DNA of 14,700 bases. Source: a virus (Duplodnaviria > Heunggongvirae > Uroviricota > Caudoviricetes). Shown piece by piece: positions 125 through 14,700 of the stretch (its first letter is position 1; each line of letters starts with the position of its first letter). The stretch lies in the IMG/VR virus record IMGVR_UViG_2529293147_000010; one strand, written 5' to 3'. The translations under genes and the position numbers were made by a program. Under the pieces are notes generated by a model. The model was not told where the DNA came from, did not search any database, and saw only the letters and a list, made by a program, of their open reading frames with translations.

Positions 125-1456
125 TTATTTTGAGTGAATTATCACCTTGTTTTTTCCGGTTCTTTTGGCTTGATATAACGCTTTATCGGCATTGACTAAC
201 ATTTCAGATGGGCTGAGATTATTCTCTTTTGAAGTAAAGCAACCAATACTGACAGTTATTTTCTCAGGTCCATGCGATAATAATTTTTCCGAGCATTGCT
301 CTTCAATGTTTTTTCTGATTCGCTCTGCAATTGATAGCAAGAGCTTTTGAGTATTACCTTTAATGATAATACCGAACTCCTCACCGCCTAAGCGCCCTAA
401 TATATCCTCTTTCCTGATGGATTTTTTTATTATTCTGGTAACCATTACTATGACTTGATCACCCATATGATGCCCCCATTTGTCATTGATGCTTTTGAAA
501 CTGTCAATATCTAACATTATTACTGAGAAATCATGGTGTTTTGATATATTCTTCAATGAGTCAATAAAGTATCTTCTATTGTATGTATTCGTTAGTGGAT
601 CATGAATTGCCATATGATTAGCATGATTTAATTTCCTGAAAATATAATACATGAGTGTTGAAATGATATAAATCATTGATATCAATTCAAGAAATTTTGT
701 CATGTACCATGCAGGATGGGATTTATCAATAAAATACAATAAAATTAGATTATTGCATACTGACACTATACTAATAAGTATTATACACAACCATATTTTT
801 GAGTAATTACGTATGCTGATGCATGAGCTGATAAGTAATACAAGCCAAAATACTGATATTATTTTGGTGTACACGATATTCCACGTCGGCAAATGACGAT
901 TCAGCGAGTATTGTATAATATTAAGACTATATTTTATATTGTCACTGCTTAGATTTTTTGCTACAAACGGAGTAATAAAAAGAATTAATATTGACAAAAC
1001 AACAATTATTATGTTTCTTTTATCTTCTAAAACACTTTTATTTTTAACATTGGTGGAATAAACAGCCAGAAAGATTATAGATATAAAGCTGAACTGACGG
1101 AATAGATAATATATTGCGATATCATTTGATTTCTGATAGATTGTAGATAAATCGTTACCTAACGGAGATAAAGAAATAATAGCCACTTCTAATAAATAAT
1201 ACGTGTTGCTCAAAAACGCGAATGAAAGAATTAAGAGATAACTTTGTCTCTGATTAGAAACATAGTAAAGCAATAGAAAAATAAAAATCATCAGGTTTAT
1301 GAAAAAAAGCCCAATAATGAAAACACTATAACTTATTTGTGTTGTTTGTGTTATGTATATTCCATTATTTGCATGCAGTAACAAAAATATAATAGAGATG
1401 CATGAAAATAAAAAGATGAAGATTTTTATTTTTATAGGTACCTGGTTGATAATCAT
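125..1456 (-). CDS. Membrane-anchored diguanylate cyclase: N-terminal multi-helix hydrophobic sensor region plus C-terminal GGDEF domain (DgcT/YcdT-like architecture)
   Basis: 443-aa ORF. First ~280 aa are successive hydrophobic helices. C-terminal domain has DPLTNTYNRRYF, an RKED motif (RxxD I-site-like) just upstream of the catalytic GGEEF, and KALYQAKRTGKN. SD-like AGGTG 6 nt upstream of the ATG at 1456. Very AT-rich compared with neighbouring prophage genes. Confidence 0.85.
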   Translation of the reverse strand: MIINQVPIKIKIFIFLFSCISIIFLLLHANNGIYITQTTQISYSVFIIGLFFINLMIFIFLLLYYVSNQRQSYLLILSFAFLSNTYYLLEVAIISLSPLGNDLSTIYQKSNDIAIYYLFRQFSFISIIFLAVYSTNVKNKSVLEDKRNIIIVVLSILILFITPFVAKNLSSDNIKYSLNIIQYSLNRHLPTWNIVYTKIISVFWLVLLISSCISIRNYSKIWLCIILISIVSVCNNLILLYFIDKSHPAWYMTKFLELISMIYIISTLMYYIFRKLNHANHMAIHDPLTNTYNRRYFIDSLKNISKHHDFSVIMLDIDSFKSINDKWGHHMGDQVIVMVTRIIKKSIRKEDILGRLGGEEFGIIIKGNTQKLLLSIAERIRKNIEEQCSEKLLSHGPEKITVSIGCFTSKENNLSPSEMLVNADKALYQAKRTGKNKVIIHSK

Positions 1457-2044: not shown

Positions 2045-3280
2045 CTACGATAACCGCGCATTCAACATGGCTATCTGTTCGTCGTTCATGTCATCAATCC
2101 ACATACCGTAAATTTCATACACCATCTGCGCAGTTTCATGCCCCATTTGGCTGGCTATAAATGCCGGGTTCGCTCCTGCCGTCAACAGCCAGCAGGCAAA
2201 AGTATGCCGCGTATGGTACGGATTACGGCGGCGAATACCAGCACGTTTTACTGCTGCATTCCACCTTGCCCCCAAACTGCTTACCGAGTAATAAGGTTTT
2301 TGTTTTCCGTTACACACCCTGGGCATGAAAACAAAATGCAGTTTTTGCTTTTCGGTTCTGCCGTACTCCCGATGATAAAAGGGGATTTCGCTTTTGCGAT
2401 GATGCCCGGTCAGTTTGTATTGCTCCTTCAGTGCTTCAAGAGCAGGCTGCAGTAGTGTTACTGTTCGGATCCCGGCATTTGTTTTTGGGGGACCGAACAT
2501 ATCAAGTATCGTCAGGTTTCTTCTGACATTCACTATTCCCTTTTCGAGATCCACATCCTCCCACGCCAGAGCTGCCAGTTCCCCGTGACGAAGTCCTGAG
2601 TAAACGGCAAATTTCCACAAGTTCTGGCTCTGTCCTTTTTCACTTTCCATTAATGCATTGAATTCTGTTTTAGATAACGGATCAGGCTTTATTCTGTTTC
2701 GCTGTAATTTTTTTACTCCTTCAAATGGTTTGGTTGATATAAATCCCGACTGATACGCAAAACGCAACAGCGAACAGAGCAGGGCGATATAGTTATCAAC
2801 TGTGCGCACGGTTCTTCCTTTTTTGTTGGATCTTGGATTATCCAGGTAAAGCGTTTCTCCATGCAGCAGTTCATTCCGGTAGTTTAAGATATCGCTATAA
2901 CGAATATGTGATATCGGGGTACTTTCACAAATTATTATTCTGAGTGTTTTTAATTGTGATTTCGTTTTCTTCATTGTGTTTGTTGTTAACTCTGTCTCTT
3001 TAATTTTTGTCCAGATATCACAAAGCTCTCCGAACGTTTTTATGACTCTCGTTGTCACCATTTTTGCCCCAGTGCTGGACTGGGGAAAACGTCTTAAATA
3101 CTCAAATTCACCGGAGTTTATTTCATGAACTATCAGCGCTCTTAAATTTCCGGCCTTTTTAATATTACTGTTTGTAATCTCCCAGCCTTTTAATGTTTCC
3201 CGACATCGTTTTCCTCGAAACATGAACCAGATGCGAATGTATCTACCTCTAATCTCGACACCTGTTGGTAATTTAGACAT
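2045..3280 (-). CDS. intR: Tyrosine site-specific integrase (Rac prophage IntR type)
   Basis: 411-aa ORF beginning MSKLPTGVEIRGRYIRIWF. C-terminal catalytic region has the R...HxxR...Y pattern (NPYHTRHTFACWLL, then MVYEIY). Length and N-terminus match my recollection of K-12 IntR. The xis gene ends 2 nt upstream of its start. Confidence 0.93.
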   Translation of the reverse strand: MSKLPTGVEIRGRYIRIWFMFRGKRCRETLKGWEITNSNIKKAGNLRALIVHEINSGEFEYLRRFPQSSTGAKMVTTRVIKTFGELCDIWTKIKETELTTNTMKKTKSQLKTLRIIICESTPISHIRYSDILNYRNELLHGETLYLDNPRSNKKGRTVRTVDNYIALLCSLLRFAYQSGFISTKPFEGVKKLQRNRIKPDPLSKTEFNALMESEKGQSQNLWKFAVYSGLRHGELAALAWEDVDLEKGIVNVRRNLTILDMFGPPKTNAGIRTVTLLQPALEALKEQYKLTGHHRKSEIPFYHREYGRTEKQKLHFVFMPRVCNGKQKPYYSVSSLGARWNAAVKRAGIRRRNPYHTRHTFACWLLTAGANPAFIASQMGHETAQMVYEIYGMWIDDMNDEQIAMLNARLS

Positions 3281-3575: not shown

Positions 3576-3785
3576 TTAATTTGAATACAATGCAATTCTC
3601 GAGGACTGAAGTTTCTCGCAATTAAAATTTATCAGTTTTACTTTCTGCTCTCTGGAAACGCCTGCTTCTTTTTTACCTGAGAGCATTTTTTCGCATTCTG
3701 ATTTCGTTAGTTTAGATTTTGAATATCTTGTCCAGTTAGTAGGAGTGCCACCTTCCTTTTCAATAGTGGCGGTAATTTTATACAT
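3576..3785 (-). CDS. rcbA: Rac prophage small protein RcbA/YdaC (reported to reduce chromosome breaks)
   Basis: 69 aa from the ATG at 3785 (MYKITATIEKEGG...), GGAGG SD 6 nt upstream. The track's 93-aa version uses an upstream start. Overlaps the ralR stop by 8 nt. Confidence 0.85.
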   Translation of the reverse strand: MYKITATIEKEGGTPTNWTRYSKSKLTKSECEKMLSGKKEAGVSREQKVKLINFNCEKLQSSRIALYSN

Positions 3786-4838: not shown

Positions 4839-7431
4839 TTGCATATTCCTTAGCCCAGCGGGGCAGTGATAATGTCTTAATAGCTGGCCATTCATCGGTA
4901 TTCAGGCAGTCAGACAGGGTTCGCAGATTGCGGTGATATTCCTGTTGACCTGCCAGTTTTGCTTCTTCGCCCATCATGAAAATTTCAACCGGATAACGTC
5001 CGCATTCAATAGTTGTGCTGGCAACCAGAAAAACGAAAGTTGGCTGCACTCCAAACTGTGCTTCATAACCGTCACTGTAGAATGCATCCTGAACGTGATA
5101 GCGGTAGTCGTAATAAGCGGTTTTGAATCGTTGAATATCCGCCGTAGTTTTCACGTCCATGATCCAGTGAAATTCAGGGATAATTTTGTCCGGACGGCAC
5201 CGACACAAAATTCCTGTTTCAGGATCTTCCCAGTAAATTGATGATTCAGCGTGTCCGGCGCTTTCAACAAGCCATTGCCCCAGCGGCAAAGCCATAACGC
5301 TTTGATACATGAGTTCAATTTTCCGGCCTTCTTCCGCAGTGATAACCGTTTTTCCTGTGCTTGCGCATTCCATCAGAAACGCTTTCTCTTCTTCTTTTCC
5401 GGCGTTTGTACGGCGGTTAAATTCAGGTGCTACGATAAAGCGGTTACTGAATTCTTCCGGTTCAAGTACCCGGCAGTGGAAAGCAGTTCCTAAATCGAGC
5501 GTTTTTGTCTTTGTGGTGTCCACGGGGGCATTTTTACGCCACAAATATAGTGCCGGAGTATCAGCAATGTCATCGAGCTGAGACTTACTGATACCGGGAC
5601 CCGCGTGGTAATTCTCATTCGAAATTCCGTAATAAATACCTGGCTCTATGTCTTCTACGATTACGGGATCTGCGACTTCGCCAGTTTCATCACTGCAATC
5701 GCGATGCGGATCGCTGCCAGCATTCTCATTGTGCGGATGTTCAGCGCCTTCCATTTCCTCCGGATCATTTTCCTTAGCTTCAACCTGACTCTCTTCATCG
5801 AATGTTTCCTGGTATGTTGCGTCGCCCATCACCGCACCACAGTCAGGGCAGTTATCCCCGCCAGTCTGGCCGCAGGCATTGCAGGCTATTTCCGGTTCCT
5901 GTTGCACTACTGGCTCAGGTTGATTCATATCCGGGCTGGTTTTTTCCGTTTCTGGCTGGTTCTGGTACACACAATCGCGAGTCTGGATCCCCTTTACCCA
6001 TTTCGGATCGTTCGGGTCGCTAATTCCGTCAACAAATTCATCACGTGATGCAGCAAGCAATTTATCGGCATCGACAGGATTTTTTGATGGAATGTTTTTC
6101 CGGGCTTTATGGAGTTCTGCCCGCAGTTCCTGATATTTCGCATCAACAGAATTTACCTGTGACTGAGCATCCAGCGGCTGCGTGTCCTGATGATGTTCAG
6201 TTGCGTCCGGTTCCATTGTTTCAGCCTCTCCCTGTTCAACTGCCGTTGTTCCAGATGGTTGCGGTTTTTCTTCATCATCCTGTTTTCCTTCTTCTGTTAC
6301 TCGCTGCGGCATCGGGGCAGAGGAGCGACCGCAGGCAATATCCACGATTTCCGGATCAGGGTTGGCATGATCGGTTTCAGTCAGTACTTTGTTCAGATAT
6401 TCAGTGACGTGCGCGGGGATGACCTCGATCCCAATTGGTGCTTCTTTTACGGACGCAACCACGATGGCGCGGGAATAATCCAGCCCGCCAGGCATGGTGA
6501 TGAATTTGTCGCGGAAAACAGAAAAGGGCGGTTTATTTTCAGCGATAATTTCCTCAATGCGTTTAGCGTGTGCCGGATGAAGGTTATAGATGTCCAGATC
6601 CATTGAACGGGCCAGTACGCCAGTGGCTACGTCGCGCGCCAGTGACGTCAGATCGTGTACGAAACCTTCGCCGCGATCGGTGAGGTTTCCGCCGCCAGCA
6701 TTAGCACCGGAAGCCGTGCGAGTGATGTGTGAAACACGATTACCCTTCATCCACTCTTTTGTCAGCAGTCCTCGATCGGTGTAGTCAGCGTTCAGGTATG
6801 CTTCGAAAAAAGCAGTTATCAGTCCCAGGTTTGAATTACCAGGATTAGGGAAAACTTTGTCAGTGTCACGAACCAGTTTGTGGAGTTCGCGAATTTCCAG
6901 CGGGTCGAGCAGGCTGGTTTTGTGGGAAACAGCCAGGGCAGTAACAGCCGGTAGTTCTTCAGCCCGAGCAATGTGTAATGCCTGGAGTCCGTCGCGTGAA
7001 ACGTGCGTTACCGGTTTTTCGCTGCCGTGTTGAGCAAGCCAACGAATGGGCAGTTCCTGGCCAGAAATTGGGAGTAGCATATTCTCCTCAATCTCAGTCA
7101 TGTCTTCGCCGTTGACGTTGGTATTGCCTTGATAGTGAGCGTTGTCTGGTGCTGCTCCCGGTTTTAGTTCCCATGTCATGGAGTCTTTGCTGAGTTGATA
7201 GCGTTCACTCCAGGTAAAATCGATCTCACCTTCAGCGGGCAGGTCATTAACGACAGGAAAATTCGTGGCAACAGCTTTAAAATAGCTGCTCAGTTTTTTA
7301 CCTGACTTAACGATCAGGTAGTCCAGAGTGGCACAGGTCGATTCAAAATCGTTGCTTGCCCACAGGACGACGTCAGGTTCACCGGATGATTTTTTCGCTT
7401 TCCGTAACAGGAAGAGTGGTTTTGTGCTCAT
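4831..7431 (-). CDS. recE: RecE exonuclease VIII (5'-3' dsDNA exonuclease, partner of RecT)
   Basis: 866-aa ORF beginning [30 protein letters not shown]; length and sequence match my recollection of K-12 RecE. Long acidic central region with a C-x2-C-x9-C-x2-C motif. The C-terminal ~260 aa is the nuclease domain by established knowledge. Confidence 0.95.
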
Positions 7432-7502
7432 TGTTTTTTAACCTCAACTCAGATTAAAATTCGTTTTGTTCAGTGAATGATCTTGCCGGATACACACTGT
7501 TC

Positions 7503-7527
7503 ATAGCCTGCGCCATACGCAGGCTAT
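7503..7527. other. Perfect 10-bp inverted repeat hairpin (ATAGCCTGCG, loop CCATA, CGCAGGCTAT) right after the racC stop, between racC and recE
   Basis: Read directly from sequence. No T-run follows on the minus (operon) strand; a T-rich stretch follows on the plus strand. Confidence 0.35.
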
Positions 7528-7532
7528 TTCTT

Positions 7533-7808
7533 TCAGATTTCACCTTTTAATTTCATTGCAATTAGAGTTGCCAGAAATTCGGCTTTTTTTTCTGCGGGCA
7601 GATTCTTTCCGATATGCACCAGGCACATTTTTTTGACACCTTCATCAAGTGTTTTTACGTTGCCTGATGGACCATCGATATCAACCACAGTGAATGGGGT
7701 TTCTTTATTTTCTGTTTTAATTACGTAGCCAATGCGCTTTCCTTCCAGATTCACCTCGTGAACAATGTCATCGGTAGTTACAACAGTGGCTTCATAATTG
7801 GTAATCAT
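7533..7808 (-). CDS. racC: RacC (Rac prophage protein of unknown function)
   Basis: 91 aa from the ATG at 7808 (MITNYEATVVTTDDIVHEV...), GGAG SD upstream. The track's 107-aa version starts further upstream. Confidence 0.85.
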   Translation of the reverse strand: MITNYEATVVTTDDIVHEVNLEGKRIGYVIKTENKETPFTVVDIDGPSGNVKTLDEGVKKMCLVHIGKNLPAEKKAEFLATLIAMKLKGEI

Positions 7809-7882
7809 GTTTTTCTCCTTAATTAAGGTTGAGCGAATACCTGCCATTTCTGGCATAAATTCAGTTTCGAATAGTCAATTAA

Positions 7883-8053
7883 TTAAAGTTCATGTGCCAT
7901 CTGGTCTTTTTCGGCACAAGCTTCACTGCAATATTTTCTCGGTTCGTCTTTTGATAAAATCCCGTGCATGAAGTGAAGCATTCTTTCAATAGCTTTGCTT
8001 TCTTCAACGTCTTTTTTGCAAAGGTGGTAAGCACATTTTATTTTCTTAGTCAT
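7883..8053 (-). CDS. ydaE: YdaE small Cys-rich (zinc-binding type) protein
   Basis: Not in the ORF track (56 aa, below its length cutoff). I translated it by hand: [56 protein letters not shown]. Its ATG overlaps the kilR TGA by 1 nt. Two Cys pairs (C-x4-C, C-x3-C). Confidence 0.75.
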   Translation of the reverse strand: MTKKIKCAYHLCKKDVEESKAIERMLHFMHGILSKDEPRKYCSEACAEKDQMAHEL

Positions 8054-8274
8054 CACCATGACTCCGCCTTTACAGGTAAACCATCACGACCGAGGAAGAC
8101 TTTAATCATGCGGTCAGTAATGCATGTTTTTGTGGTCAGGTTACGAATATATAGTTTTCGCTTTTTAATATTGTTTGCCGAGGCAATATATGTCCGGCCT
8201 TCATGAAGAACATAATCGCCAGGAGTCACACACTGACGTGGTATTTCATCAGTTCCGAAGTGATGTGCAATCAT
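8053..8274 (-). CDS. kilR: KilR, FtsZ-targeting cell-division inhibitor (killing function of Rac)
   Basis: 73 aa from the ATG at 8274 ([21 protein letters not shown]...), GGAG SD 7 nt upstream. Matches K-12 KilR in length and sequence as I recall it. Confidence 0.85.
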
Positions 8275-8715
8275 AATTATCTCCATTTTTACAAATGAAC
8301 TTTGTTGATGCGGTGCCTGGTGCCTCCAGGTGACTGCAACCAGTTAACAATTACAGTCGGCTTTCCCACCCAAACCAATAAGGACTAACATGACTTTTAA
8401 CTGTGCCACGTGCGCTTAGCCGCATTCACCGCATCACAAAATTCACTTTAAAAAGGGCGGACATCAGCCGAACTTCAAGAAAAAAACTGATGCCGCCAGG
8501 ACTACACACAGCAATGTCGTTATTTACAACCGGAGGCGCACTCCCACCATTTAAATTTAACAGACAAGACCGACTCTTTATGGATATCGGAAATGCGCCT
8601 TCGTGTTGTGCCCGGTTTTATTTCACCACCTCCGGGCTTCGGTGGTCTCGGCTATACCCCTACAGCGAGAGCTTGTGTTAACATTTCAATACCCTTACAG
8701 TTGAGAGTTATTGAT

Positions 8716-9204
8716 ATGTTGGATGTATTTACTCCATTGTTGAAACTTTTTGCTAAGGAGCCACTCGAAAGACTTATGTATACGATTATCATTTTTGGTC
8801 TCACTCTCTGGCTGATACCGAAAGAGTTTACTGTCGCATTCAACGCTTATACTGAAATACCTTGGCTCTTTCAGATTATCGTTTTTGCCTTTTCTTTCGT
8901 GGTCGCCATTTCCTTCTCAAGATTGCGAGCACATATTCAAAAGCATTATTCATTACTACCAGAGCAACGAGTATTGCTTCGTTTATCTGAGAAAGAAATC
9001 GCTGTATTTAAAGATTTCCTTAAAACAGGAAATCTTATTATCACTTCTCCTTGCCGTAACCCGGTTATGAAAAAATTAGAACGGAAGGGCATCATTCAAC
9101 ATCAGAGTGATAGCGCAAACTGTTCTTATTATCTCGTCACCGAAAAATACTCCCATTTTATGAAGTTATTCTGGAACAGCAGGAGTAGACGTTTTAATCG
9201 TTAG
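8716..9204 (+). CDS. sieB: SieB superinfection exclusion protein B (membrane protein)
   Basis: 162 aa from the ATG at 8716 (MLDVFTPLLKLFAKEPLERLMYTIIIFGLTLWLIP...), with two hydrophobic helices. An in-frame ATG at 8593 would add 41 aa but has no convincing SD. Confidence 0.85.
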   Translation: MLDVFTPLLKLFAKEPLERLMYTIIIFGLTLWLIPKEFTVAFNAYTEIPWLFQIIVFAFSFVVAISFSRLRAHIQKHYSLLPEQRVLLRLSEKEIAVFKDFLKTGNLIITSPCRNPVMKKLERKGIIQHQSDSANCSYYLVTEKYSHFMKLFWNSRSRRFNR

Positions 9205-9356
9205 CTTACTGTGTGCTTCTTCAACCATCGGCGCGCACCAGTTTCGGTTTTAAATGTTTTGCTTTTGGTATACGTCATGGCAGTGAACGTTCCATCCTGG
9301 TTGGGGAACACGCCGCACACCAGGGATTCGTTGTTGCCGAGGTCGATTTTTTGCAT
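9201..9356 (-). CDS. ydaF: YdaF small Rac protein, function unknown
   Basis: Not in the ORF track (51 aa). Hand translation: MQKIDLGNNESLVCGVFPNQDGTFTAMTYTKSKTFKPKTGARRWLKKHTVS. Its stop overlaps the sieB stop on the opposite strand. Confidence 0.7.
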   Translation of the reverse strand: MQKIDLGNNESLVCGVFPNQDGTFTAMTYTKSKTFKTETGARRWLKKHTVS

Positions 9357-9366
9357 TTTGCGAATC

Positions 9367-9501
9367 TCACATCTTGTTGCTACGTATAGCGACTTCTGCC
9401 TGCCAGAGATCCCAGTCGTTGCTGCGTAAAGCCTGCACAGCCTGGTTGTAAGTGATACCGCAACAATCCATCAAATACTGAACTACTTCGTAATGCACCA
9501 T
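9367..9501 (-). CDS. ydaG: YdaG small Rac protein, function unknown; first gene of the leftward operon
   Basis: Not in the ORF track (44 aa). Hand translation: MVHYEVVQYLMDCCGITYNQAVQALRSNDWDLWQAEVAIRSNKM. Strong SD AAGGGGAGAG upstream of the ATG at 9501. Confidence 0.7.
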   Translation of the reverse strand: MVHYEVVQYLMDCCGITYNQAVQALRSNDWDLWQAEVAIRSNKM

Positions 9502-9670
9502 CTTATCTCTCCCCTTAACGCCGGGTGGCGGAACTAACTACTGCACTGCAAAATTTGAATCCCGCCGTCATGTTCATACGCCTCGGGCTGGCTACTTAAC
9601 CCCTTACCACTGCCTGGTAACTCGAAGTATTGCCCGGCGTTCTGTGGGGCGGGGGGGGTGGTATGCTGGA

Positions 9671-9716
9671 ACTATAGGTAATGCCTAATTGATTGTCAAT
9701 AGGCTATGCCTAATGT
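9671..9716 (-). promoter_or_regulatory. Leftward early promoter (pL analogue) with embedded repressor operator sites
   Basis: On the minus strand: TTGACA (9699-9694), 17-nt spacer, TATAGT (9676-9671). The operator half-site TTAGGC occurs upstream of -35 and inside the spacer. The 24-nt block CATTAGGCATAGCCTATTGACAAT is near-identical to the block in the racR-ydaS region. Confidence 0.55.
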
Positions 9717-9809
9717 TTTGAGCGTAACCTAATAGGTGATGGCGACAGCAGAAAGTGATGGGGGGGTTAAATAACGGAATCCAGGAGTTTTCCGTCAGAC
9801 CATATAAGT

Positions 9810-10286
9810 TTAAGTTCCAGTTTTTGTGATGTTCTGGCTTTTCCGTTCAGATTCTAGAGCTTTCAGATACTTACCCACTTTCATTTCCATCGCTGCTATA
9901 TAGGCGCGAACATCGTGGTCAACCCAATCTGGTTCTGTAGCATTTCCAGATAACAGGAAAGCTACAATCGCTCTTATTTCATCAGAGGCTGCTTGATAAA
10001 GGTTGTTTATATCTAAAATTTCACTTTTTGTATCTGAATTGGTGGGGGTTGGTATGGGGTATTCGTTAAGCCCCCAATGCTCTGGACCAACAACATCAGA
10101 AAAGAAACGCCATAATTCTGGAAGTTTATCTTTACTTATAGAGCCTTTCTTAATCCAGTCATAAATTGATGGTGGTTGGACTTTGAAGTGGCGTGCGACC
10201 TCCGCCTTTGATTTGACGGATCCCGATGCGATTTTTTTGTTAATGGCCTGCTCTATCGCTCGGCCTAAGTCTTTACCACTAAGCAT
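9810..10286 (-). CDS. racR: RacR, prophage immunity repressor (HTH DNA-binding protein)
   Basis: 158-aa ORF (MLSGKDLGRAIEQAINKKIASGSVKSKAEVARHFKVQPPSIYDWIKKG...) with an N-terminal HTH. AGGAGA SD about 10 nt upstream. Divergent from ydaS, in a cI/cro-like arrangement. Confidence 0.9.
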   Translation of the reverse strand: MLSGKDLGRAIEQAINKKIASGSVKSKAEVARHFKVQPPSIYDWIKKGSISKDKLPELWRFFSDVVGPEHWGLNEYPIPTPTNSDTKSEILDINNLYQAASDEIRAIVAFLLSGNATEPDWVDHDVRAYIAAMEMKVGKYLKALESERKSQNITKTGT

Positions 10287-10312
10287 TGCTTAATATTCTC
10301 CTATGCGCATTA

Positions 10313-10390
10313 CATTAGGCAATCCCTACCCTTACCGCATTAGGCACAGCCTATTGACAATTGCGTTAGGCGTCGCCTAATATTTCTGTG
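10313..10390 (+). promoter_or_regulatory. Rightward early promoter (pR analogue) plus operators in the racR-ydaS divergent region
   Basis: TTGACA (10354-10359), 18-nt spacer, TAATAT (10378-10383). A perfect 15-bp palindrome TTAGGCGTCGCCTAA (10366-10380) overlaps the spacer and -10. A 13/15 palindrome TTAGGCACAGCCTAT sits just upstream of -35, with a further TTAGGC half-site at 10315. GGAG SD 9 nt before the ydaS ATG. Confidence 0.6.
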
Positions 10391-10409
10391 TGTTTTTGGA
10401 GTTCATTCG

Positions 10410-10706
10410 ATGAAAAAAGAGAACTATTCATTCAAGCAAGCTTGTGCTGTTGTCGGTGGGCAATCAGCAATGGCTAGGCTTTTAGGTGTATCACCTCCAA
10501 GCGTAAATCAATGGATCAAAGGGGTACGTCAATTGCCTGCCGAGAGATGTCCAGCAATTGAACGTGCAACAAGAGGTGAGGTTCTGTGCGAAGAACTTCG
10601 TCCTGATATTGACTGGTCATATTTACGACGTTCGGCATGTTGTTCGCAGAATATGTCAGTGAAGCAACTAAATGACAGTAACAAATCCTCATTTGATCAT
10701 ACCTGA
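10410..10706 (+). CDS. ydaS: YdaS, Cro-like HTH regulator (toxic when derepressed, by published reports)
   Basis: 98-aa ORF with an HTH segment (QSAMARLLGVSPPSVNQWIKG); first gene downstream of the pR-like promoter. Confidence 0.9.
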   Translation: MKKENYSFKQACAVVGGQSAMARLLGVSPPSVNQWIKGVRQLPAERCPAIERATRGEVLCEELRPDIDWSYLRRSACCSQNMSVKQLNDSNKSSFDHT

Positions 10707-10728
10707 AACATCAAGAGGCAAATGATTC

Positions 10729-11151
10729 ATGAAAATCAAGCATGAGCACATCGAATCAGTGTTGTTAGCCCTGGCTGCTGAAAAAGGGCAGGCATGGGTA
10801 GCCAATGCCATTACTGAAGAATATCTGCGCCAGGGGGGCGGCGAATTGCCCCTGGTACCAGGCAAGGACTGGAACAATCAGCAGAATATCTATCACCGTT
10901 GGTTGAAAGGTGAAACGAAAGCGCAAAGGGAAAAAATTCAGAAACTGATCCCTGCGGTTCTGGCAATCCTTCCGCGCGAGCTGCGTCACCGACTCTGCAT
11001 CTTCGATACCCTGGAACGCCGTGCATTACTGGCGGCGCAGGAAGCGTTAAGTACGGCAATTGATGCGCATGATGATGCAGTCCAGGCCGTTTACCGGAAA
11101 GCGCATTTCAGCGGCGGCGGGTCTTCCGACGATTCTGTCATTGTTCATTAA
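10729..11151 (+). CDS. ydaT: YdaT (cII-like regulator / toxic partner of YdaS, by published reports)
   Basis: 140-aa ORF (MKIKHEHIESVLLALAAEKGQAWVANAITEEYLRQ...), AAGAGG SD about 10 nt upstream; sits in the cII-equivalent position. Confidence 0.9.
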   Translation: MKIKHEHIESVLLALAAEKGQAWVANAITEEYLRQGGGELPLVPGKDWNNQQNIYHRWLKGETKAQREKIQKLIPAVLAILPRELRHRLCIFDTLERRALLAAQEALSTAIDAHDDAVQAVYRKAHFSGGGSSDDSVIVH

Positions 11152-11163
11152 GCAAAAGTTTCC

Positions 11164-12021
11164 ATGCTGTTTGTGCTTATTCTAAGCAACCGGGCAGCAT
11201 CATACGGGGCAATTATGGCCGCATTACCATACATGCAACTGTACATAGCTGATTACCTGGCTGACACCATGCATTTGTCAGCAGAGGAGCATGGTGCGTA
11301 TTTGTTGCTGATGTTCAATTACTGGCAAACAGGAAAGCCAATACCTAAAAACAGGCTGGCAAAAATTGCCCGTCTGACTAACGAGCGATGGGCTGATGTT
11401 GAACCATCCTTGCAGGAGTTTTTTTGCGATAACGGCGAGGAATGGGTGCATCTTCGGATTGAGGAAGATCTGGCATCAGTCAGGGAAAAATTAACCAAAA
11501 AATCAGCCGCAGGAAAAGCATCTGTTCAGGCCAGAAGAAGCAGAAAGGAAGCAGATGTTCAAACAAAACAAGAGAGAAATTTAACAGGTGTTCAAACAGA
11601 TGTTGAAGTGGTGTTTGAACATGATGTCAACACAAAGGCAACTAATAAAGATACAGATAAAGATCTAAAAAAAGATCCCCCCCTAAATCCCCCCCGGGGG
11701 AATCGAGGTGTCAAAAAGTTTGACCCTCTGGATATTGCTTTGCCGAACTGGATTTCTGTCTCGCTTTGGCGTGAGTGGGTTGAATTTCGCCAGGCATTGC
11801 GTAAACCGATTCGAACGGAGCAGGGTGCTAACGGGGCGATACGGGAGCTGGAAAAATTCCGCCAGCAGGGTTTTTCACCTGAGCAGGTGATTCGACACAG
11901 CATCGCCAATGAATACCAGGGCTTGTTCGCGCCAAAAGGTGTTCGACCTGAGACGTTACTCCGACAGGTTAACACCGTCTCGTTACCGGATAGTGCGATC
12001 CCGCCAGGCTTCAGGGGGTAA
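11164..12021 (+). CDS. ydaU: YdaU, replication-module protein (DUF1376-type, O-like position)
   Basis: 285-aa ORF directly upstream of the DnaC-like loader. The first ATG lacks a clear SD; a downstream ATG at about 11215 is an alternative start. Confidence 0.85.
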   Translation: MLFVLILSNRAASYGAIMAALPYMQLYIADYLADTMHLSAEEHGAYLLLMFNYWQTGKPIPKNRLAKIARLTNERWADVEPSLQEFFCDNGEEWVHLRIEEDLASVREKLTKKSAAGKASVQARRSRKEADVQTKQERNLTGVQTDVEVVFEHDVNTKATNKDTDKDLKKDPPLNPPRGNRGVKKFDPLDIALPNWISVSLWREWVEFRQALRKPIRTEQGANGAIRELEKFRQQGFSPEQVIRHSIANEYQGLFAPKGVRPETLLRQVNTVSLPDSAIPPGFRG

Positions 12022-12027
12022 CTGACC

Positions 12028-12774
12028 ATGAAAAATATTGCGGCAGGCGGCATTCTTGAACGTATCCGTAGACTGGCCCCGCCACATGTAACCGCCCCAT
12101 TCAAAACGGTAGCGGAGTGGCGCGAGTGGCAACTTTCCGAAGGCCAGAAACGTTGTGAGGAGATCAACCGTCAGAATCGTCAGTTGCGGGTGGAAAAAAT
12201 TCTGAATCGCTCTGGCATCCAGCCATTGCACCGCAAATGCTCGTTTTCGAATTACCAGGTGCAGAACGAAGGGCAGCGATACGCGTTGAGTCAGGCGAAA
12301 TCCATCGCTGATGAACTGATGACCGGGTGTACAAATTTTGCGTTCAGCGGAAAACCTGGTACTGGGAAGAACCACTTAGCGGCAGCTATCGGGAATCACC
12401 TGCTGAAAGACGGTCAGACAGTGATTGTGGTTACCGTGGCTGATGTTATGAGTGCCCTGCACGCCAGCTATGACGATGGGCAGTCAGGCGAAAAATTTTT
12501 GCGGGAACTGTGCGAAGTGGATCTGCTGGTTCTTGATGAAATTGGCATTCAGCGCGAGACGAAAAACGAGCAGGTGGTACTGCACCAGATTGTTGATCGC
12601 CGGACAGCGTCGATGCGCAGCGTGGGGATGCTGACAAACCTGAACTATGAGGCCATGAAAACATTGCTCGGCGAGCGGATTATGGATCGCATGACCATGA
12701 ACGGCGGGCGATGGGTGAATTTTAACTGGGAGAGCTGGCGTCCGAATGTCGTCCAGCCAGGAATTGCGAAGTAA
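12028..12774 (+). CDS. ydaV: YdaV, DnaC/IstB-like AAA+ helicase loader (replication protein P analogue)
   Basis: 248-aa ORF with Walker [14 protein letters not shown] and Walker [19 protein letters not shown] about 9 nt upstream. Confidence 0.9.
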
Positions 12775-12796
12775 TTTTTACCGGGAGAAAAATTTA

Positions 12797-13558
12797 ATGG
12801 AGACTGTTTTTGACGCACTGAAAGCAATGGGAAAAGCCACATCCATAGAACTTGCTGCGCGACTTGATATCAGTCGTGAAGAAGTGCTGAACGAACTATG
12901 GGAACTGAAAAAGGCTGGTTTTGTTGATAAAAGCGCGTACACCTGGCGTGTGGCTGATAACAACGTTCAGCAGGAACAGCCAGCGCAGGCAGAACTGCCG
13001 GAAGAAACCACCACAGCAACAGTAGCGAAAATCTCAGAGTGCGATTTAACCGCGACGATTGAACAACGCGGACCACAAACGGCTGATGAGTTGGCTACAT
13101 TGTTCGGTACCACATCACGCAAAGTGGCTTCAACGCTGGCAATGGCTATCAGCAAAGGTCGTCTGATTCGCATTAATCAGAACGGTAAATTTCGTTACTG
13201 CATACCGGGTGATAATTTACCAGCAGAGCCGAAAGTTGAATCGGTAGCGGAAACCGATGGTAAAGCCTTTCCTCAGCCAGCAGGTGTTGCGTTACCAGTA
13301 CAGGAAGCTGCAACACAGGAAGATATTAAAACAGAAACTGTGGCTGATATTGTGCAGTCGTTGCCATCGTTTACTGAAACGCGAGCGGATGACCTGGTTT
13401 TACCATCGCTGCATATGGCAAACCGCGAATTGCGTCGGGCGAAAAGTCATGTCCAGAAGTGGGAGCGAGTCTGCGCCGCGCTGCGGGAGCTGAACAAGCA
13501 CCGGGATATTGTTCGACAGATTACGGATTCTTCCCGCCGTATTGTATCGGAAAAGTGA
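12797..13558 (+). CDS. ydaW: YdaW-like protein, apparently full-length; contains two winged-helix-like segments
   Basis: 253 aa from the ATG at 12797 ([52 protein letters not shown]...), GGGAG SD 9 nt upstream. The track's 270-aa version starts inside ydaV. The ydaW gene symbol is by position after ydaV and is not verified. Confidence 0.78.
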
Positions 13559-13573
13559 TTGCCGGAGGCGCTT

Positions 13574-13903
13574 ATGGCAAAAGTATTTACACAAGAAGGG
13601 CGGGAAAAAATTAAAGGGCAGGTTGTTGAACTCGTGCGCCAGAGTGGGCGCGAGACGTTACGACAACTGGAAGCTAAGACAGGTGCGACAAGATATCTGA
13701 TGAACCTTCTTGCCAGAGAATTGGTTGCGAGCGGTGATGTATACAACTCTGGTTACGGGTTATTTCCCTCAGAACAGGTTCGTAAAGACTGGCAAAACGC
13801 CCGCAAAAAACTATCAAGGGCAAAGGTGAAGAAACCGGTTGTGGTTGATCCTGACCTTATCTGGTCATTACCTGACGGAGAAATCCGTCGCCTTAGTCTT
13901 TGA
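13574..13903 (+). CDS. Hypothetical 109-aa protein with a winged-helix-like segment; no counterpart I recognise in K-12 Rac
   Basis: ATG at 13574 with GGAGG SD 5 nt upstream (MAKVFTQEGREKIKGQVVELVRQSGRETLRQLEAKTGATRYLMNLLARELVASGDVY...). Translationally close-coupled to the ydaW-like gene. Confidence 0.65.
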   Translation: MAKVFTQEGREKIKGQVVELVRQSGRETLRQLEAKTGATRYLMNLLARELVASGDVYNSGYGLFPSEQVRKDWQNARKKLSRAKVKKPVVVDPDLIWSLPDGEIRRLSL

Positions 13904-13938
13904 TAATAGGTTTATAATGTTGAAAAAGAGTCTAATAG

Positions 13939-13969
13939 TTGACATTGTATGAAATATGATTGTTATATA
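13939..13969 (+). promoter_or_regulatory. Strong sigma70-like promoter in an AT-rich island
   Basis: TTGACA at 13939-13944; TG-extended TATATA at 13961-13969 (spacer about 19 nt). A perfect TATAAT also at 13913-13918. AAGG SD precedes the ATG at 14005. Confidence 0.4.
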
Positions 13970-14004
13970 AAATGATTTTTTTGGATACTGTTTAAGGTAA
14001 ACAA

Positions 14005-14157
14005 ATGAAACCAGAATACTTAAGAAAAATAGAATCATTGCAACGTGAGGTTGATGATTTCCATCCAGTGCTAAGAGCGCTTCTACCACGTTTGCCGACT
14101 GTTACACATGTTGAATATAAGCAAGGACCATCAGAAAAAGGTGCTGATTTTGGGTGA
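14005..14157 (+). pseudogene. AT-rich orphan ORF cut off by IS1: 50 codons of an unknown gene, with the stop codon supplied by the IS1 terminal inverted repeat
   Basis: MKPEYLRKIESLQREVDDFHPVLRALLPRLPTVTHVEYKQGPSEKGADFG, then TGA lying inside the IS1 end sequence GGTGATGCTGCC. Has its own promoter and SD. I do not recognise the product. Confidence 0.4.
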
Positions 14158-14207
14158 TGCTGCCAACTTACTGATTTAGTGTATGATGGTGTTTTTGAGG
14201 TGCTCCA

Positions 14208-14483
14208 GTGGCTTCTGTTTCTATCAGCTGTCCCTCCTGTTCAGCTACTGACGGGGTGGTGCGTAACGGCAAAAGCACTGCCGGACATCAGCGCTATCTC
14301 TGCTCTCACTGCCGTAAAACATGGCAACTGCAGTTCACTTACACCGCTTCTCAACCCGGTACGCACCAGAAAATTATTGATATGGCCATGAATGGCGTTG
14401 GATGCCGGGCAACTGCACGCATTATGGGCGTTAGCCTCAACACGATTTTACGTCACTTAAAAAACTCAGGCCGCAGTCGGTAA
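14208..14483 (+). CDS. insA: IS1 InsA (transposition inhibitor / N-terminal part of the InsAB' transposase)
   Basis: 91 aa with a GTG start ([40 protein letters not shown]...), zinc-finger CxxC pairs and an HTH. Confidence 0.9.
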
Positions 14484-14700
14484 CCTCGCGCATACAGCCG
14501 GGCAGTGACGTCATCGTCTGCGCGGAAATGGACGAACAGTGGGGCTATGTCGGGGCTAAATCGCGCCAGCGCTGGCTGTTTTACGCGTATGACAGTCTCC
14601 GGAAGACGGTTGTTGCGCACGTATTCGGTGAACGCACTATGGCGACGCTGGGGCGTCTTATGAGCCTGCTGTCACCCTTTGACGTGGTGATATGGATGAC
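14465..14700 (+). CDS. insB: IS1 InsB' reading frame (-1 relative to insA), 5' part only; expressed as the InsAB' fusion by programmed -1 frameshift
   Basis: A6C slippery motif at 14459-14465 inside TTAAAAAACTC. The downstream -1 frame translates to [37 protein letters not shown]...DVVIWM, open to the window end. Confidence 0.8.

Follow-up and report, generated by a model that had tools for sequence, protein, structure and literature searches.

The early-right operon of Rac-type prophages carries ydaW and lygF directly 3′ of the helicase-loader gene, a slot that in phage lambda is held by ren, and a 2023 paper still listed ydaUVW without a determined function (PMC11014345). What are these two genes, and what might their products do in this position? 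We have analysed them at positions 12797–13903 of a 14,700-nt stretch of Caudoviricetes DNA (hereafter the window; all coordinates are those of the window, and all features lie on the + strand). In the window we recognise the early-right operon (racR / ydaS-T-U-V) that belongs to a lambdoid prophage of the Rac type, and the two genes close this RacR-repressed operon, ydaS-T-U-V-W-lygF. Both have already been catalogued as E. coli Rac prophage early genes. The combined explanation offered here is that a complete Rac ydaW is followed by a ren-family lygF that has been cut, and that the two proteins would act as adaptors that keep phage replication out of reach of abortive infection; we give this explanation, mechanism included, a probability of roughly 40%.

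ydaW is complete in the window and a remnant in K-12

The first gene, ydaW (12797–13558; ATG 12797, TGA 13558), encodes 253 aa plus stop, and a Shine-Dalgarno GGGAG read from the sequence (12783–12787) lies 9 nt before the ATG. The start is backed by the invariant M1 and the N-terminal consensus of the family. The initial annotation of a full-length ydaW with a good Shine-Dalgarno was exact in its coordinates. YdaW matches Pfam PF07789 (DUF1627) over the whole profile (positions 1–155 of 155, residues 88–242) with E = 9e-99 and 328.1 bits against a gathering score of 28.1, and it matches PHROG 630 with E = 6e-131 over residues 1–249 of 253. A RefSeq genome with a 100%-identical sequence likewise annotates it as a ‘DUF1627 domain-containing protein’.

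A MarR assignment was considered and dropped, since the scores (MarR 17.2 bits against a gathering score of 24.6; MarR_2 14.4 against 27) fall short and the modelled winged helices are isolated, without flanking MarR-type helices. All other helix-turn-helix matches of YdaW in Pfam also stay below their gathering thresholds. A plasmid RepA-like initiator with tandem winged helices was dropped as well, no Rep family being matched in the Pfam search, and sequence searches against the PDB returned nothing usable.

The initial annotation had taken the K-12 ydaW to be only a remnant, and the comparison confirms this. MG1655 ydaW (b1361) is annotated with 561 nt and 186 aa, not 253. A blastn alignment of the window with NC_000913.3 shows 99.2% identity over 7.2 kb and ends at 13246, leaving the part of ydaW at 13247–13558 missing from MG1655. 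The K-12 protein is near-identical to that of the window over residues 1 to ~150 and then runs into an unrelated 36-aa tail toward rzpR; it is from this end of homology and the foreign tail that the K-12 gene is recognized as a remnant. K-12 ydaW has the same operon and neighbours as the gene in the window but lacks residues ~151–253, and lygF is wholly absent from K-12 through a deletion reaching rzpR. The window, in contrast, has kept the full-length gene, a form that is ancestral and that functional Rac-type phages also carry.

Domain anatomy of YdaW

An AlphaFold2 (AF2) model, although of low global confidence (pTM 0.27, from a shallow alignment), divides YdaW into two winged helices, two disordered linkers and a C-terminal module. 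Winged helix 1 (residues 1–52, 12797–12952; helices 4–11, 16–23 and 27–40, pLDDT ~80–86) is net acidic, with a family mean charge of −2.0 (−1.4 in the recognition helix), and its Pfam matches to HTH_20, Crp_2 and TrmB are sub-threshold. It is joined by a linker that varies in length and sequence within the family (residues 53–80, 12953–13036; pLDDT <50 at residues 51–76) to winged helix 2 (residues 81–137, 13037–13207; helices 81–91, 96–103 and 107–119, β-hairpin 124–135). This second domain is net basic, with a family mean charge of +4.0 (+2.8 in the wing), and residues 85–133 match PHROG 142 at E = 8.5e-5.

The remainder of the protein begins with an acidic, proline-rich linker (residues 138–184, 13208–13348; pLDDT <50 at residues 140–202) with a family mean charge of −5.1 and many indels. 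A conserved linear motif of the IPxFT type follows (residues 185–203, 13349–13405), with the consensus [IVF][VL]x[SDE][IL]P[SVA]F[TV]..R[PA]DD[LM][IV][IVL]P in a 44-sequence family alignment, where P190 is kept in 40 and P203 in 39 sequences. The protein ends in a single basic amphipathic helix (residues 203–252, 13403–13552; pLDDT 65–84) with a family mean charge of +6.2, an EIRRTK-like stretch, and an arginine at position 213 in 41/44 sequences. Residues 185–252 of the window protein keep P190, P203 and R213. Relatives with one, two or three winged helices all carry this motif and helix at their C-terminus. Because the number of winged helices that precede it varies from one to three, it is the C-terminal motif and helix, rather than the winged helices, that by alignment defines the family, a point missed in the initial annotation; this is the module that the K-12 protein has lost, together with part of linker 2.

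Chains of ScpB, the kleisin-binding condensin subunit, were among the top fold matches of YdaW with 156–182 columns aligned; the rmsd is as high as ~16 Å since the domains are not arranged in a comparable way. ScpB uses its tandem winged helices for contacts with protein, not DNA. The two proteins have no sequence relationship, and ScpB lacks a disordered linker and a C-terminal helix; the likeness is one of analogy only.

Three related winged helices and their charges

The initial annotation had seen a similar pattern in three segments of the two proteins and suggested a winged-helix fold for each. Structure prediction agrees: AF2 gives a winged helix in all three (pLDDT ~80–86 in YdaW, >90 in LygF), and DSSP on both models finds the H1-(β)-H2-H3-wing topology in each segment. 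Foldseek returns the winged helices of MarR, ArsR, FeoC, IclR and MntR, with rmsd values of 1.1–1.5 Å over 55–61 residues to FeoC, CadC and MarR. A viral fold search in BFVD gave generic or unnamed winged-helix proteins only.

The likeness of the segments in sequence is real, but it is seen only with profiles. Raw Smith-Waterman scores among the three were not significant against shuffles (p = 0.11, 0.03 and 0.14), whereas hhalign with family alignments related the two YdaW winged helices to each other (E = 8e-8, 94.5%), winged helix 2 to LygF/DUF977 (E = 2e-10, 96.8%) and winged helix 1 to LygF (E = 2e-6, 89.3%), all in the register first given; the YdaW C-terminal helix, used as a negative control, gave E = 0.06–0.6. 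With HMMER, a DUF977 profile built without Ren scored YdaW weakly, at 16 bits (E = 8e-7), and at 6 bits (1.4e-3) when a stricter profile was used; both E-values refer to a target set of three sequences. Likeness of this degree would fit recent paralogy and membership of the broad winged-helix superfamily alike, and the common ancestry of YdaW and DUF977 may be at the superfamily level only.

The charges suggest that winged helix 2 of YdaW and LygF could bind DNA, and that winged helix 1 probably does not. Winged helices are most often those of DNA-binding transcription factors, and one explanation is that YdaW, and LygF when intact, are sequence-specific regulators whose C-terminal helices would form dimers on operators of nin-region, late or cargo genes. 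The three winged-helix folds, the basic second domain with its wing, and a C-terminal helix long enough that it could dimerise the protein are all in line with such a role. YdaW has also been placed, in a ‘MarR-type’ box, among the E. coli transcription factors of unknown function (PMC9308461), and DUF977 also occurs in fusions with Fic proteins, for which an autoregulatory helix-turn-helix is plausible (PMC2686095). However, a regulator is hard to reconcile with a first winged helix that is acidic family-wide, recognition helix included, or with helix-turn-helix matches in Pfam that are sub-threshold throughout. Repeat searches found none inside ydaW or lygF and no repeats or operators in or beside either gene, and a scan for promoters and terminators gave counts at chance level. 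(The only Rfam match in the window was RalA, which lies elsewhere than in these two genes.) Furthermore, what is conserved next to the genes is the replication module and not a fixed downstream target, since the genes downstream of ydaW and lygF vary between phages. The combination of a short conserved motif with a long linker that is acidic and disordered is also more typical of adaptors, and we consider a transcription regulator doubtful.

lygF is a ren-family gene cut by a NACHT cassette

The second ORF starts 15 nt after the ydaW stop, exactly as first annotated, and its Shine-Dalgarno GGAGG (13564–13568, read from the sequence) lies 5 nt before the ATG. The ORF (13574–13903; ATG 13574, TGA 13903) has 109 codons, and it had been taken for an intact gene coupled to ydaW. 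It is instead the 3′-truncated gene lygF′, of which 106 codons are homologous to other copies and three encode LSL, followed by the stop. LygF matches Pfam PF06163 (DUF977) with E = 1.4e-16 and 61.2 bits against a gathering score of 22.1, the match spanning only positions 1–99 of the 134 in the profile, and PHROG 142 (‘Ren-like exclusion protein’) with E = 1.6e-26. Full-length relatives have 140–143 aa and are colinear with the window copy through residue 106, and in the 100%-identical genome PGAP has flagged the gene as ‘incomplete; missing C-terminus’. The window therefore holds what in alignment is a truncated allele and not an intact gene.

The cause of the truncation can be read directly downstream. 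Divergence from full-length lygF sets in immediately after codon 106, where the GC content drops to 0.31–0.35, and the 3′ end of the gene is replaced by an AT-rich foreign cassette (13892–14153) that is identical base for base to the NACHT locus of NZ_CP180604. The LSL and the stop of the ORF come from this cassette, which also contains the start of a NACHT gene (ATG 14005) up to codon 49. The NACHT gene is itself split by an IS1 element (14154–14700), identified from its sequence and ORF translation, with the left end GGTGATGCTGCCAACTTACTG and insA at 14208–14483; divergence from the intact NACHT locus occurs at 14154. The lygF/NACHT junction is present in 16 of the 5,426 complete E. coli genomes. 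The region immediately 3′ of ydaW/lygF serves as a cargo site for defence and toxin–antitoxin genes.

What is retained of LygF includes a winged helix (residues 7–64, 13592–13765), which was modelled by AF2 on a full-length homologue that is 85% identical to the window protein (pLDDT >90 at residues ~10–80). The model shows helices 7–24, 29–36 and 40–53 plus a wing, for which Foldseek finds IclR, MntR, MarR and GntR as matches, and a fourth helix (residues 67–86, 13772–13831) with a counted charge of about +7.

Given the cut lygF and the split NACHT gene beside it, the pair in this prophage might be decaying cargo without current function, its ORFs persisting because the prophage is young or because they hitch-hike. 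Many strains carry Rac in cryptic form, and half of ydaW is already gone from K-12. The state of ydaW itself argues otherwise: it is full length, with its start, Shine-Dalgarno and every conserved family position intact, it is 93–97% identical to the copies from plaque-forming or inducible Rac-type phages, and the family domains are, among homologues of 24–71% identity, under clear purifying selection. Decay of the pair as a whole is thus quite improbable in our view.

LygF belongs to the lambda Ren family

The position of the two genes was first noted as resembling the ren/nin region of lambda, and the match goes further than position, the second ORF being itself of the Ren family (PHROG 142, with a shared motif). 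The lambda gene for Ren (96 aa) lies directly after P in a pR-type operon, in the same slot as ydaW/lygF, and Ren and LygF are both in PHROG 142. Both Ren and full-length LygF also combine an N-terminal winged helix with the C-terminal motif N[LI][VI]x[KR]ECRQSxxM[KQ]RVLAxY, in which they share 12 of 20 residues (BLASTP E = 3e-7). A DUF977 profile built without Ren still matches Ren through the winged helix and the motif, at an HMMER E-value of 9e-10 that refers to a three-sequence target set and goes with low bit scores. On these sequence comparisons LygF falls within the lambda Ren family, although it has an extra basic helix and a spacer of ~25 residues, both absent from Ren. YdaW stands further off, having a second winged helix and, at its C-terminus, an unrelated module, but the lambda Ren family is the nearest relative of its winged helix 2 outside YdaW's own family.

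The ECRQS..M.RVLA.Y motif occupies residues 112–131 in full-length LygF, and the window ORF lacks it because of the truncation at codon 106. An EC[RKQ] pattern was counted, with direct inspection, in 73/94 sequences, and a natural DUF977 subgroup of ~88 aa likewise does without the Ren motif, so absence of the motif does not exclude a Ren-family origin. The LygF proteins of Rac-SA53, vB_EcoS-683R6, PhiR5_2 and mEp460, which lie in the same place after ydaW and are 90–92% identical to that of the window over residues 1–106, are 133–143 aa long and carry the motif, whereas the window copy ends in LSL*. As the inserted NACHT cassette has removed the motif, the lygF of the window is probably crippled.

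Distribution and the slot after the replication genes

In IMG/VR loci from diverse phages, relatives of ydaW lie directly after a gene for a DnaC-like, a lambda-P-like or an HTH_36-initiator protein. A DUF977 gene comes next after ydaW in 33/79 loci, and close relatives of lygF are preceded by ydaW in 59/76. Each of the two genes occurs in some phages without the other, and the coupling assumed in the initial annotation is therefore not obligate. Of the 5,426 complete E. coli genomes, 4,247 carry at least some portion of the pair.

This distribution bears on the further explanation that YdaW and LygF are accessory factors of replication, acting on origin firing, helicase loading or a late-replication switch through the initiator, the loader, DnaB, host SSB or the clamp. 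Across three unrelated types of replication module the genes invariably follow directly on the last replication gene, and they are transcribed with ydaU and ydaV (gaps of 6–22 nt, with 22 nt from ydaV to the ydaW start). The lambda literature describes ren as ‘likely involved in DNA replication’, tandem winged helices are found in ScpB and in replisome organisers among the weak fold matches, and the conserved acidic IPxF motif is, speculatively, loosely like the SSB tail. Yet the same distribution also weakens the idea, since a family that stands behind DnaC-type, P-type and initiator-only modules alike cannot be tied to any single loader. Many lambdoid phages need no more than one gene of the pair to replicate, P-lethality and replicative killing do not require Ren (PMC3640518), and no Rep-type family was matched. 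An accessory role in replication is, in our judgement, unlikely.

A possible shield for phage replication

We tentatively propose that YdaW and LygF serve as adaptors without enzymatic activity, through which phage replication is protected from Rex, retrons and similar abortive-infection systems, an assignment of function that is possible but short of even odds. The two proteins would be made together with the replication proteins, and their targets would be either defence proteins or the nucleoprotein complexes associated with replication. The phage's own replication would thereby be kept from triggering abortive-infection or exclusion systems, as lambda Ren acts against Rex. Within YdaW, the basic winged helix and the basic C-terminal helix would contact nucleic acid or oligomerise, while a protein partner would be held by the acidic winged helix together with the linear motif.

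Lambda ren is reportedly needed for escape from Rex exclusion, as Toothman and Herskowitz are said to have described in 1980. Two-hybrid data show that Ren and O interact with Rex proteins (bioRxiv 10.1101/2021.04.19.439022), and K-12 ydaW has been recovered and re-tested as a blocker of RcaT, the toxin of retron-Sen2 (bioRxiv 10.1101/2020.06.22.160242). The RcaT result comes from an overexpression screen, and the K-12 remnant lacks the family-defining module and carries an artificial tail. The defence and toxin–antitoxin cargo that lies directly downstream is also in favour of the proposal.

Several observations run against adaptors. PADLOC gave no meaningful match, with marginal, non-passing matches only for YdaW (CARF3 1.7e-4, SWIM_XIII 6.5e-4) and none for full-length LygF, and winged helix 2 of YdaW is basic, in a fold used mostly by DNA-binding transcription factors. 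The low HMMER scores between YdaW and DUF977 and the low global confidence of the YdaW model also count against the proposal.

The adaptor proposal could be extended, in a form that we regard as speculative and unlikely as a whole, to the ren slot in general. The slot would then be a conserved counter-defence locus, and YdaW and LygF/Ren would together make up a single superfamily whose members, each with one to three winged helices, act as decoys or shields and prevent replication-triggered abortive-infection systems (Rex, retron toxins and possibly others) from being set off by the phage's own replication; the IPxFT motif with the basic helix would be a new module that docks onto a protein of the host or of a defence system.

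Taken together, the comparison has direct consequences for how these genes are to be read. The K-12 ydaW gene is a fusion remnant without the family-defining module, and results obtained with it, from the retron-blocker screen to the transcription-factor survey, are therefore not to be taken as properties of full-length YdaW. The 109-aa ORF is a truncated ren homologue and no new small gene. If the counter-defence reading is true, a very common prophage gene pair would gain a role, and the 45-year-old question of Ren versus Rex would gain a wider family.

ydaW and its remnant in K-12

The left and central parts of a Rac-type lambdoid prophage of Escherichia coli make up the window, Rac being among the best-known cryptic prophages, and the genes around the pair run in the order racR (9810-10286, minus strand), ydaS, ydaT, ydaU (DUF1376, O-like) and ydaV (DnaC/IstB-like), after which come the two open reading frames. 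ORF1, ydaW, extends from an ATG at 12797 to a TGA at 13558 (253 aa) with GGGAG 9 nt before its start; ORF2 begins 15 nt past the ORF1 stop (ATG 13574 to TGA 13903, 109 aa) with GGAGG 5 nt before its start, so the coordinates, lengths and spacing in the initial annotation were correct. Of 5,426 complete E. coli genomes, 4,247 matched a 1.3-kb query around the pair over some part of its length, and 921 matched 80% or more of it.

Window positions 6045-13246 are 99.2% identical to K-12 MG1655, and DNA homology to K-12 ends at 13246. The K-12 ydaW gene has only 561 nt (186 aa), and its product follows the window protein up to about residue 150 and then has an unrelated 36-residue tail; the initial annotation was right that K-12 carries a remnant. 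Since the next K-12 feature is the rzpR pseudogene, a deletion has taken lygF entirely, together with the 3′ 40% of ydaW and the early/nin-equivalent genes downstream. YdaW proteins of 253-257 aa occur in Rac-SA53, vB_EcoS-683R6 and PhiR5_2, Rac-type phages that can be induced or form plaques.

Intergenic gaps along ydaS-T-U-V-W-lygF are 6-22 nt, and a promoter and terminator scan gave counts at chance level, which fits a single RacR-repressed operon. Published work places ydaUVW in a racR-proximal operon and assigns it no function (PMC11014345).

Elsewhere in the prophage, 3601-3779 (plus strand) matches the full length of the Rfam model for RalA (225 bits), the sRNA antitoxin in the type I toxin-antitoxin system RalR/RalA of Rac. 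Left of intR (2045-3280) lies a 443-aa ORF (125-1456, minus strand) with no PADLOC match; because K-12 and NZ_CP180604 have ttcA (311 aa) as the corresponding neighbour, the attachment-site flank may differ in the window strain. Inside ydaU, direct repeats are present at 11307-11600 (GCTGATGTTCAA at 11307, GCTGATGTTGAA at 11392, AGCAGATGTTCAAACAAA at 11550 and AACAGGTGTTCAAACAGA at 11583), adjoining an AT-rich stretch (GC 0.41-0.44) that reaches to about 11800. These repeats look like putative origin iterons within the initiator gene; the lambda ori sits within O.

LygF is homologous to lambda Ren, and the window copy is truncated

The PHROG 142 profile, 'Ren-like exclusion protein', matched ORF2 with an E-value of 1.6e-26. 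Lambda Ren (96 aa), encoded directly after P, and full-length LygF have in common N[LI][VI]x[KR]ECRQSxxM[KQ]RVLAxY, with 12/20 identity (BLASTP E = 3e-7). A LygF-only profile found Ren at E = 5e-8, and a broader DUF977 profile from which Ren was left out did so at E = 9e-10 (a low bit score in a three-sequence target set), with two matching segments in the same order in both, one in the winged helix and one in the C-terminal motif. LygF is thus a homologue of lambda Ren.

The strongest part of this link is exactly the portion absent from the window copy. Intact LygF has 140-143 aa, and the window protein is 90-92% identical to it through residue 106 (...DGEIRR) and then ends in LSL-stop, where the full-length protein continues YDRRxNIICRECRxSEVMQRVLAFYQ... 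The departure follows codon 106 directly, at 13891, where GC content falls from about 0.48 to 0.31-0.35, and PGAP flags the ORF2 sequence as 'incomplete; missing C-terminus'. The window DNA here is identical to a locus in NZ_CP180604, where an intact 752-aa NACHT gene comes next; in the window, within the AT-rich cassette (13892-14700), this gene starts at 14005 and breaks off after 49 codons, at 14154, where an end of IS1 lies. Among the 5,426 complete genomes, 16 carry the lygF'/NACHT junction, none of them with the window's IS1. PADLOC returned only weak HerA and mad8 matches for the NACHT protein. The coupled gene described initially therefore stands as to its ribosome-binding site and 15-nt gap, though not as an intact gene; it is a ren homologue truncated by a defence cassette. 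That the pair is simply decaying cargo seems improbable to us. The truncated LygF may even retain residual activity, since a natural DUF977 subgroup of about 88 aa also lacks the Ren motif.

This divergent subgroup (MPRPKTH...RIIELVKE.GR.T...) has the winged helix only and lies just downstream of YdaW relatives at nine loci. Another locus carries a very Ren-like tail, CRQSPAMKRVLAFYG.

Three winged helices and a C-terminal unit

The AlphaFold2 model of YdaW, built from 33 close homologues, has a mean pLDDT of 63.7 and a pTM of 0.27, the domains reaching about 80-86. It comprises a winged helix (residues 4-49, wHTH1), a disordered stretch (51-76), a winged helix with a clear beta-hairpin (81-135, wHTH2), a second disordered stretch (140-202, linker 2) and a single long helix (203-252). 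In the model of full-length LygF, a winged helix (7-64) and a helix (67-86) are predicted with pLDDT >90, the C-terminus being of low confidence. Foldseek searches of the PDB returned winged-helix proteins only (MarR, ArsR/CadC, FeoC, IclR, MntR, GntR, AspA and Z-alpha), among them the tandem winged-helix protein ScpB, and the best domain matches had rmsd values of 1.1-1.5 Å over 55-61 residues. In 2009, profile methods had already assigned a winged helix to DUF977, which in some proteins is fused to Fic (PMC2686095).

The pattern that the initial annotation saw in all three segments is not significant between single sequences; profile-profile comparison recovered it in the same register, with E = 8e-8 for wHTH1 against wHTH2, 2e-10 for wHTH2 against LygF and 2e-6 for wHTH1 against LygF (control, the YdaW C-terminal helix, 0.06-0.6). 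Against YdaW, the Ren-free DUF977 profile gave E = 8e-7 (16 bits; three-sequence target set), with domain i-E values of 8e-5 for wHTH2 and 4e-3 for wHTH1 in the same run; a stricter profile gave 1.4e-3 only. The three segments therefore have a fold in common, and wHTH2 is the closer of the two YdaW domains to Ren/LygF. This likeness may come from specific paralogy, or from no more than their all belonging to the wHTH superfamily.

The YdaW family is small: clustering at 50% gave 188 representatives from 1.84 billion proteins searched. In an alignment of 44 sequences (21-71% identity), neither the length nor the sequence of the linkers is kept, and conservation falls on both winged helices and most strikingly on residues 185-245, which read [IVF][VL]x[SDE][IL]P[SVA]F[TV]..R[PA]DD[LM][IV][IVL]P and then I.RE[IL]RR[TA]K..L..LE[KR]LR.A.RE...KH. 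Relatives have a single winged helix, of either the first or the second type, or two or three, always ahead of this unit; the Pfam DUF1627 model spans wHTH2 and the C-terminal unit, and the K-12 remnant retains both winged helices without that unit. The C-terminal motif and helix, rather than the winged helices, thus define the family, and YdaW is made up of Ren-like winged helices ahead of them. Conserved charge across the family is -2.0 for wHTH1 (recognition helix -1.4), +4.0 for wHTH2 (wing +2.8), -5.1 for linker 2 and +6.2 for the C-helix. YdaW figures in the literature among transcription factors with no assigned function, its length depending on the strain (PMC9308461), and a conventional transcription regulator, with its winged helices acting on DNA, is a possible though doubtful reading.

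Eight family members exemplify the variants with one to three winged helices, and two others are YdaU-YdaW fusions from prophage deletions. The short linear motif [IL]P.F[TV]..R.DD...P (residues 185-203, window 13349-13405), kept in relatives, is preceded by acidic residues within an otherwise disordered linker; as pure speculation, it might be compared loosely with clamp-binding motifs or with the DDDIPF tip at the C-terminus of SSB.

A conserved slot after the replication genes

We compared 79 IMG/VR loci with YdaW relatives (28-71% identity). The gene directly upstream encodes a DnaC-like loader, a lambda-P-like loader (PF06992) or an HTH_36/DnaD-type initiator; the slot after the last replication gene is thus kept across unrelated replication modules, as for lambda ren. 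Together with the Ren homology, this bears out the initial assignment of the pair to the lambda ren region. A role as a replication accessory factor would suit such a position, yet we consider it rather unlikely. A DUF977/Ren-like gene immediately follows YdaW at 33/79 loci (25/71 distinct sequences), and close LygF relatives are preceded by YdaW at 59/76 loci. YdaW is found without LygF in PPompW/Stx2a phages and LygF without YdaW in mEp460, so the pair is recurrent but separable. The genes after it vary: NACHT, an FtsH-like gene with an S8 peptidase, HigBA, Paa/AdfO or a methyltransferase.

A variable cargo site lies just after the ren-slot genes, downstream of lygF at four loci, and holds NACHT in CP180604, FtsH-like plus S8 peptidase in 683R6, HigBA in PhiR5_2 and Paa/AdfO in PPompW.

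Possible function of the pair

Lambda ren is transcribed together with O and P, and Toothman and Herskowitz reportedly found in 1980 that it is needed for escape from Rex exclusion. Neither P-lethality nor replicative killing requires Ren (PMC3640518), and a Ren-Rex protein interaction was seen by two-hybrid analysis (bioRxiv 10.1101/2021.04.19.439022). In an overexpression screen, K-12 ydaW blocked the retron-Sen2 toxin RcaT, as re-tested by re-conjugation (bioRxiv 10.1101/2020.06.22.160242); the clone is the K-12 remnant form. Given the homology to Ren, the retron result, a slot that does not change, an acidic wHTH1 and the short conserved motif in the acidic disordered linker, we favour, with a probability of roughly 35%, a reading in which YdaW and LygF would be non-enzymatic adaptors that stop phage replication from tripping abortive-infection systems.

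Taken together, the initial observations are real and their interpretation is largely correct, and we regard the identity and anatomy of both genes as secure. The object itself is ordinary: both gene families were on record beforehand, as DUF1627/YdaW and DUF977/LygF/Ren, and identical proteins stand in RefSeq as 'DUF1627 domain-containing protein' and 'DUF977 family protein', phage records naming the pair 'YdaW family protein' and 'LygF'. What is added here is the truncation of ORF2, the build of YdaW, its family-defining C-terminal unit that K-12 lacks, and the ren-slot rule.
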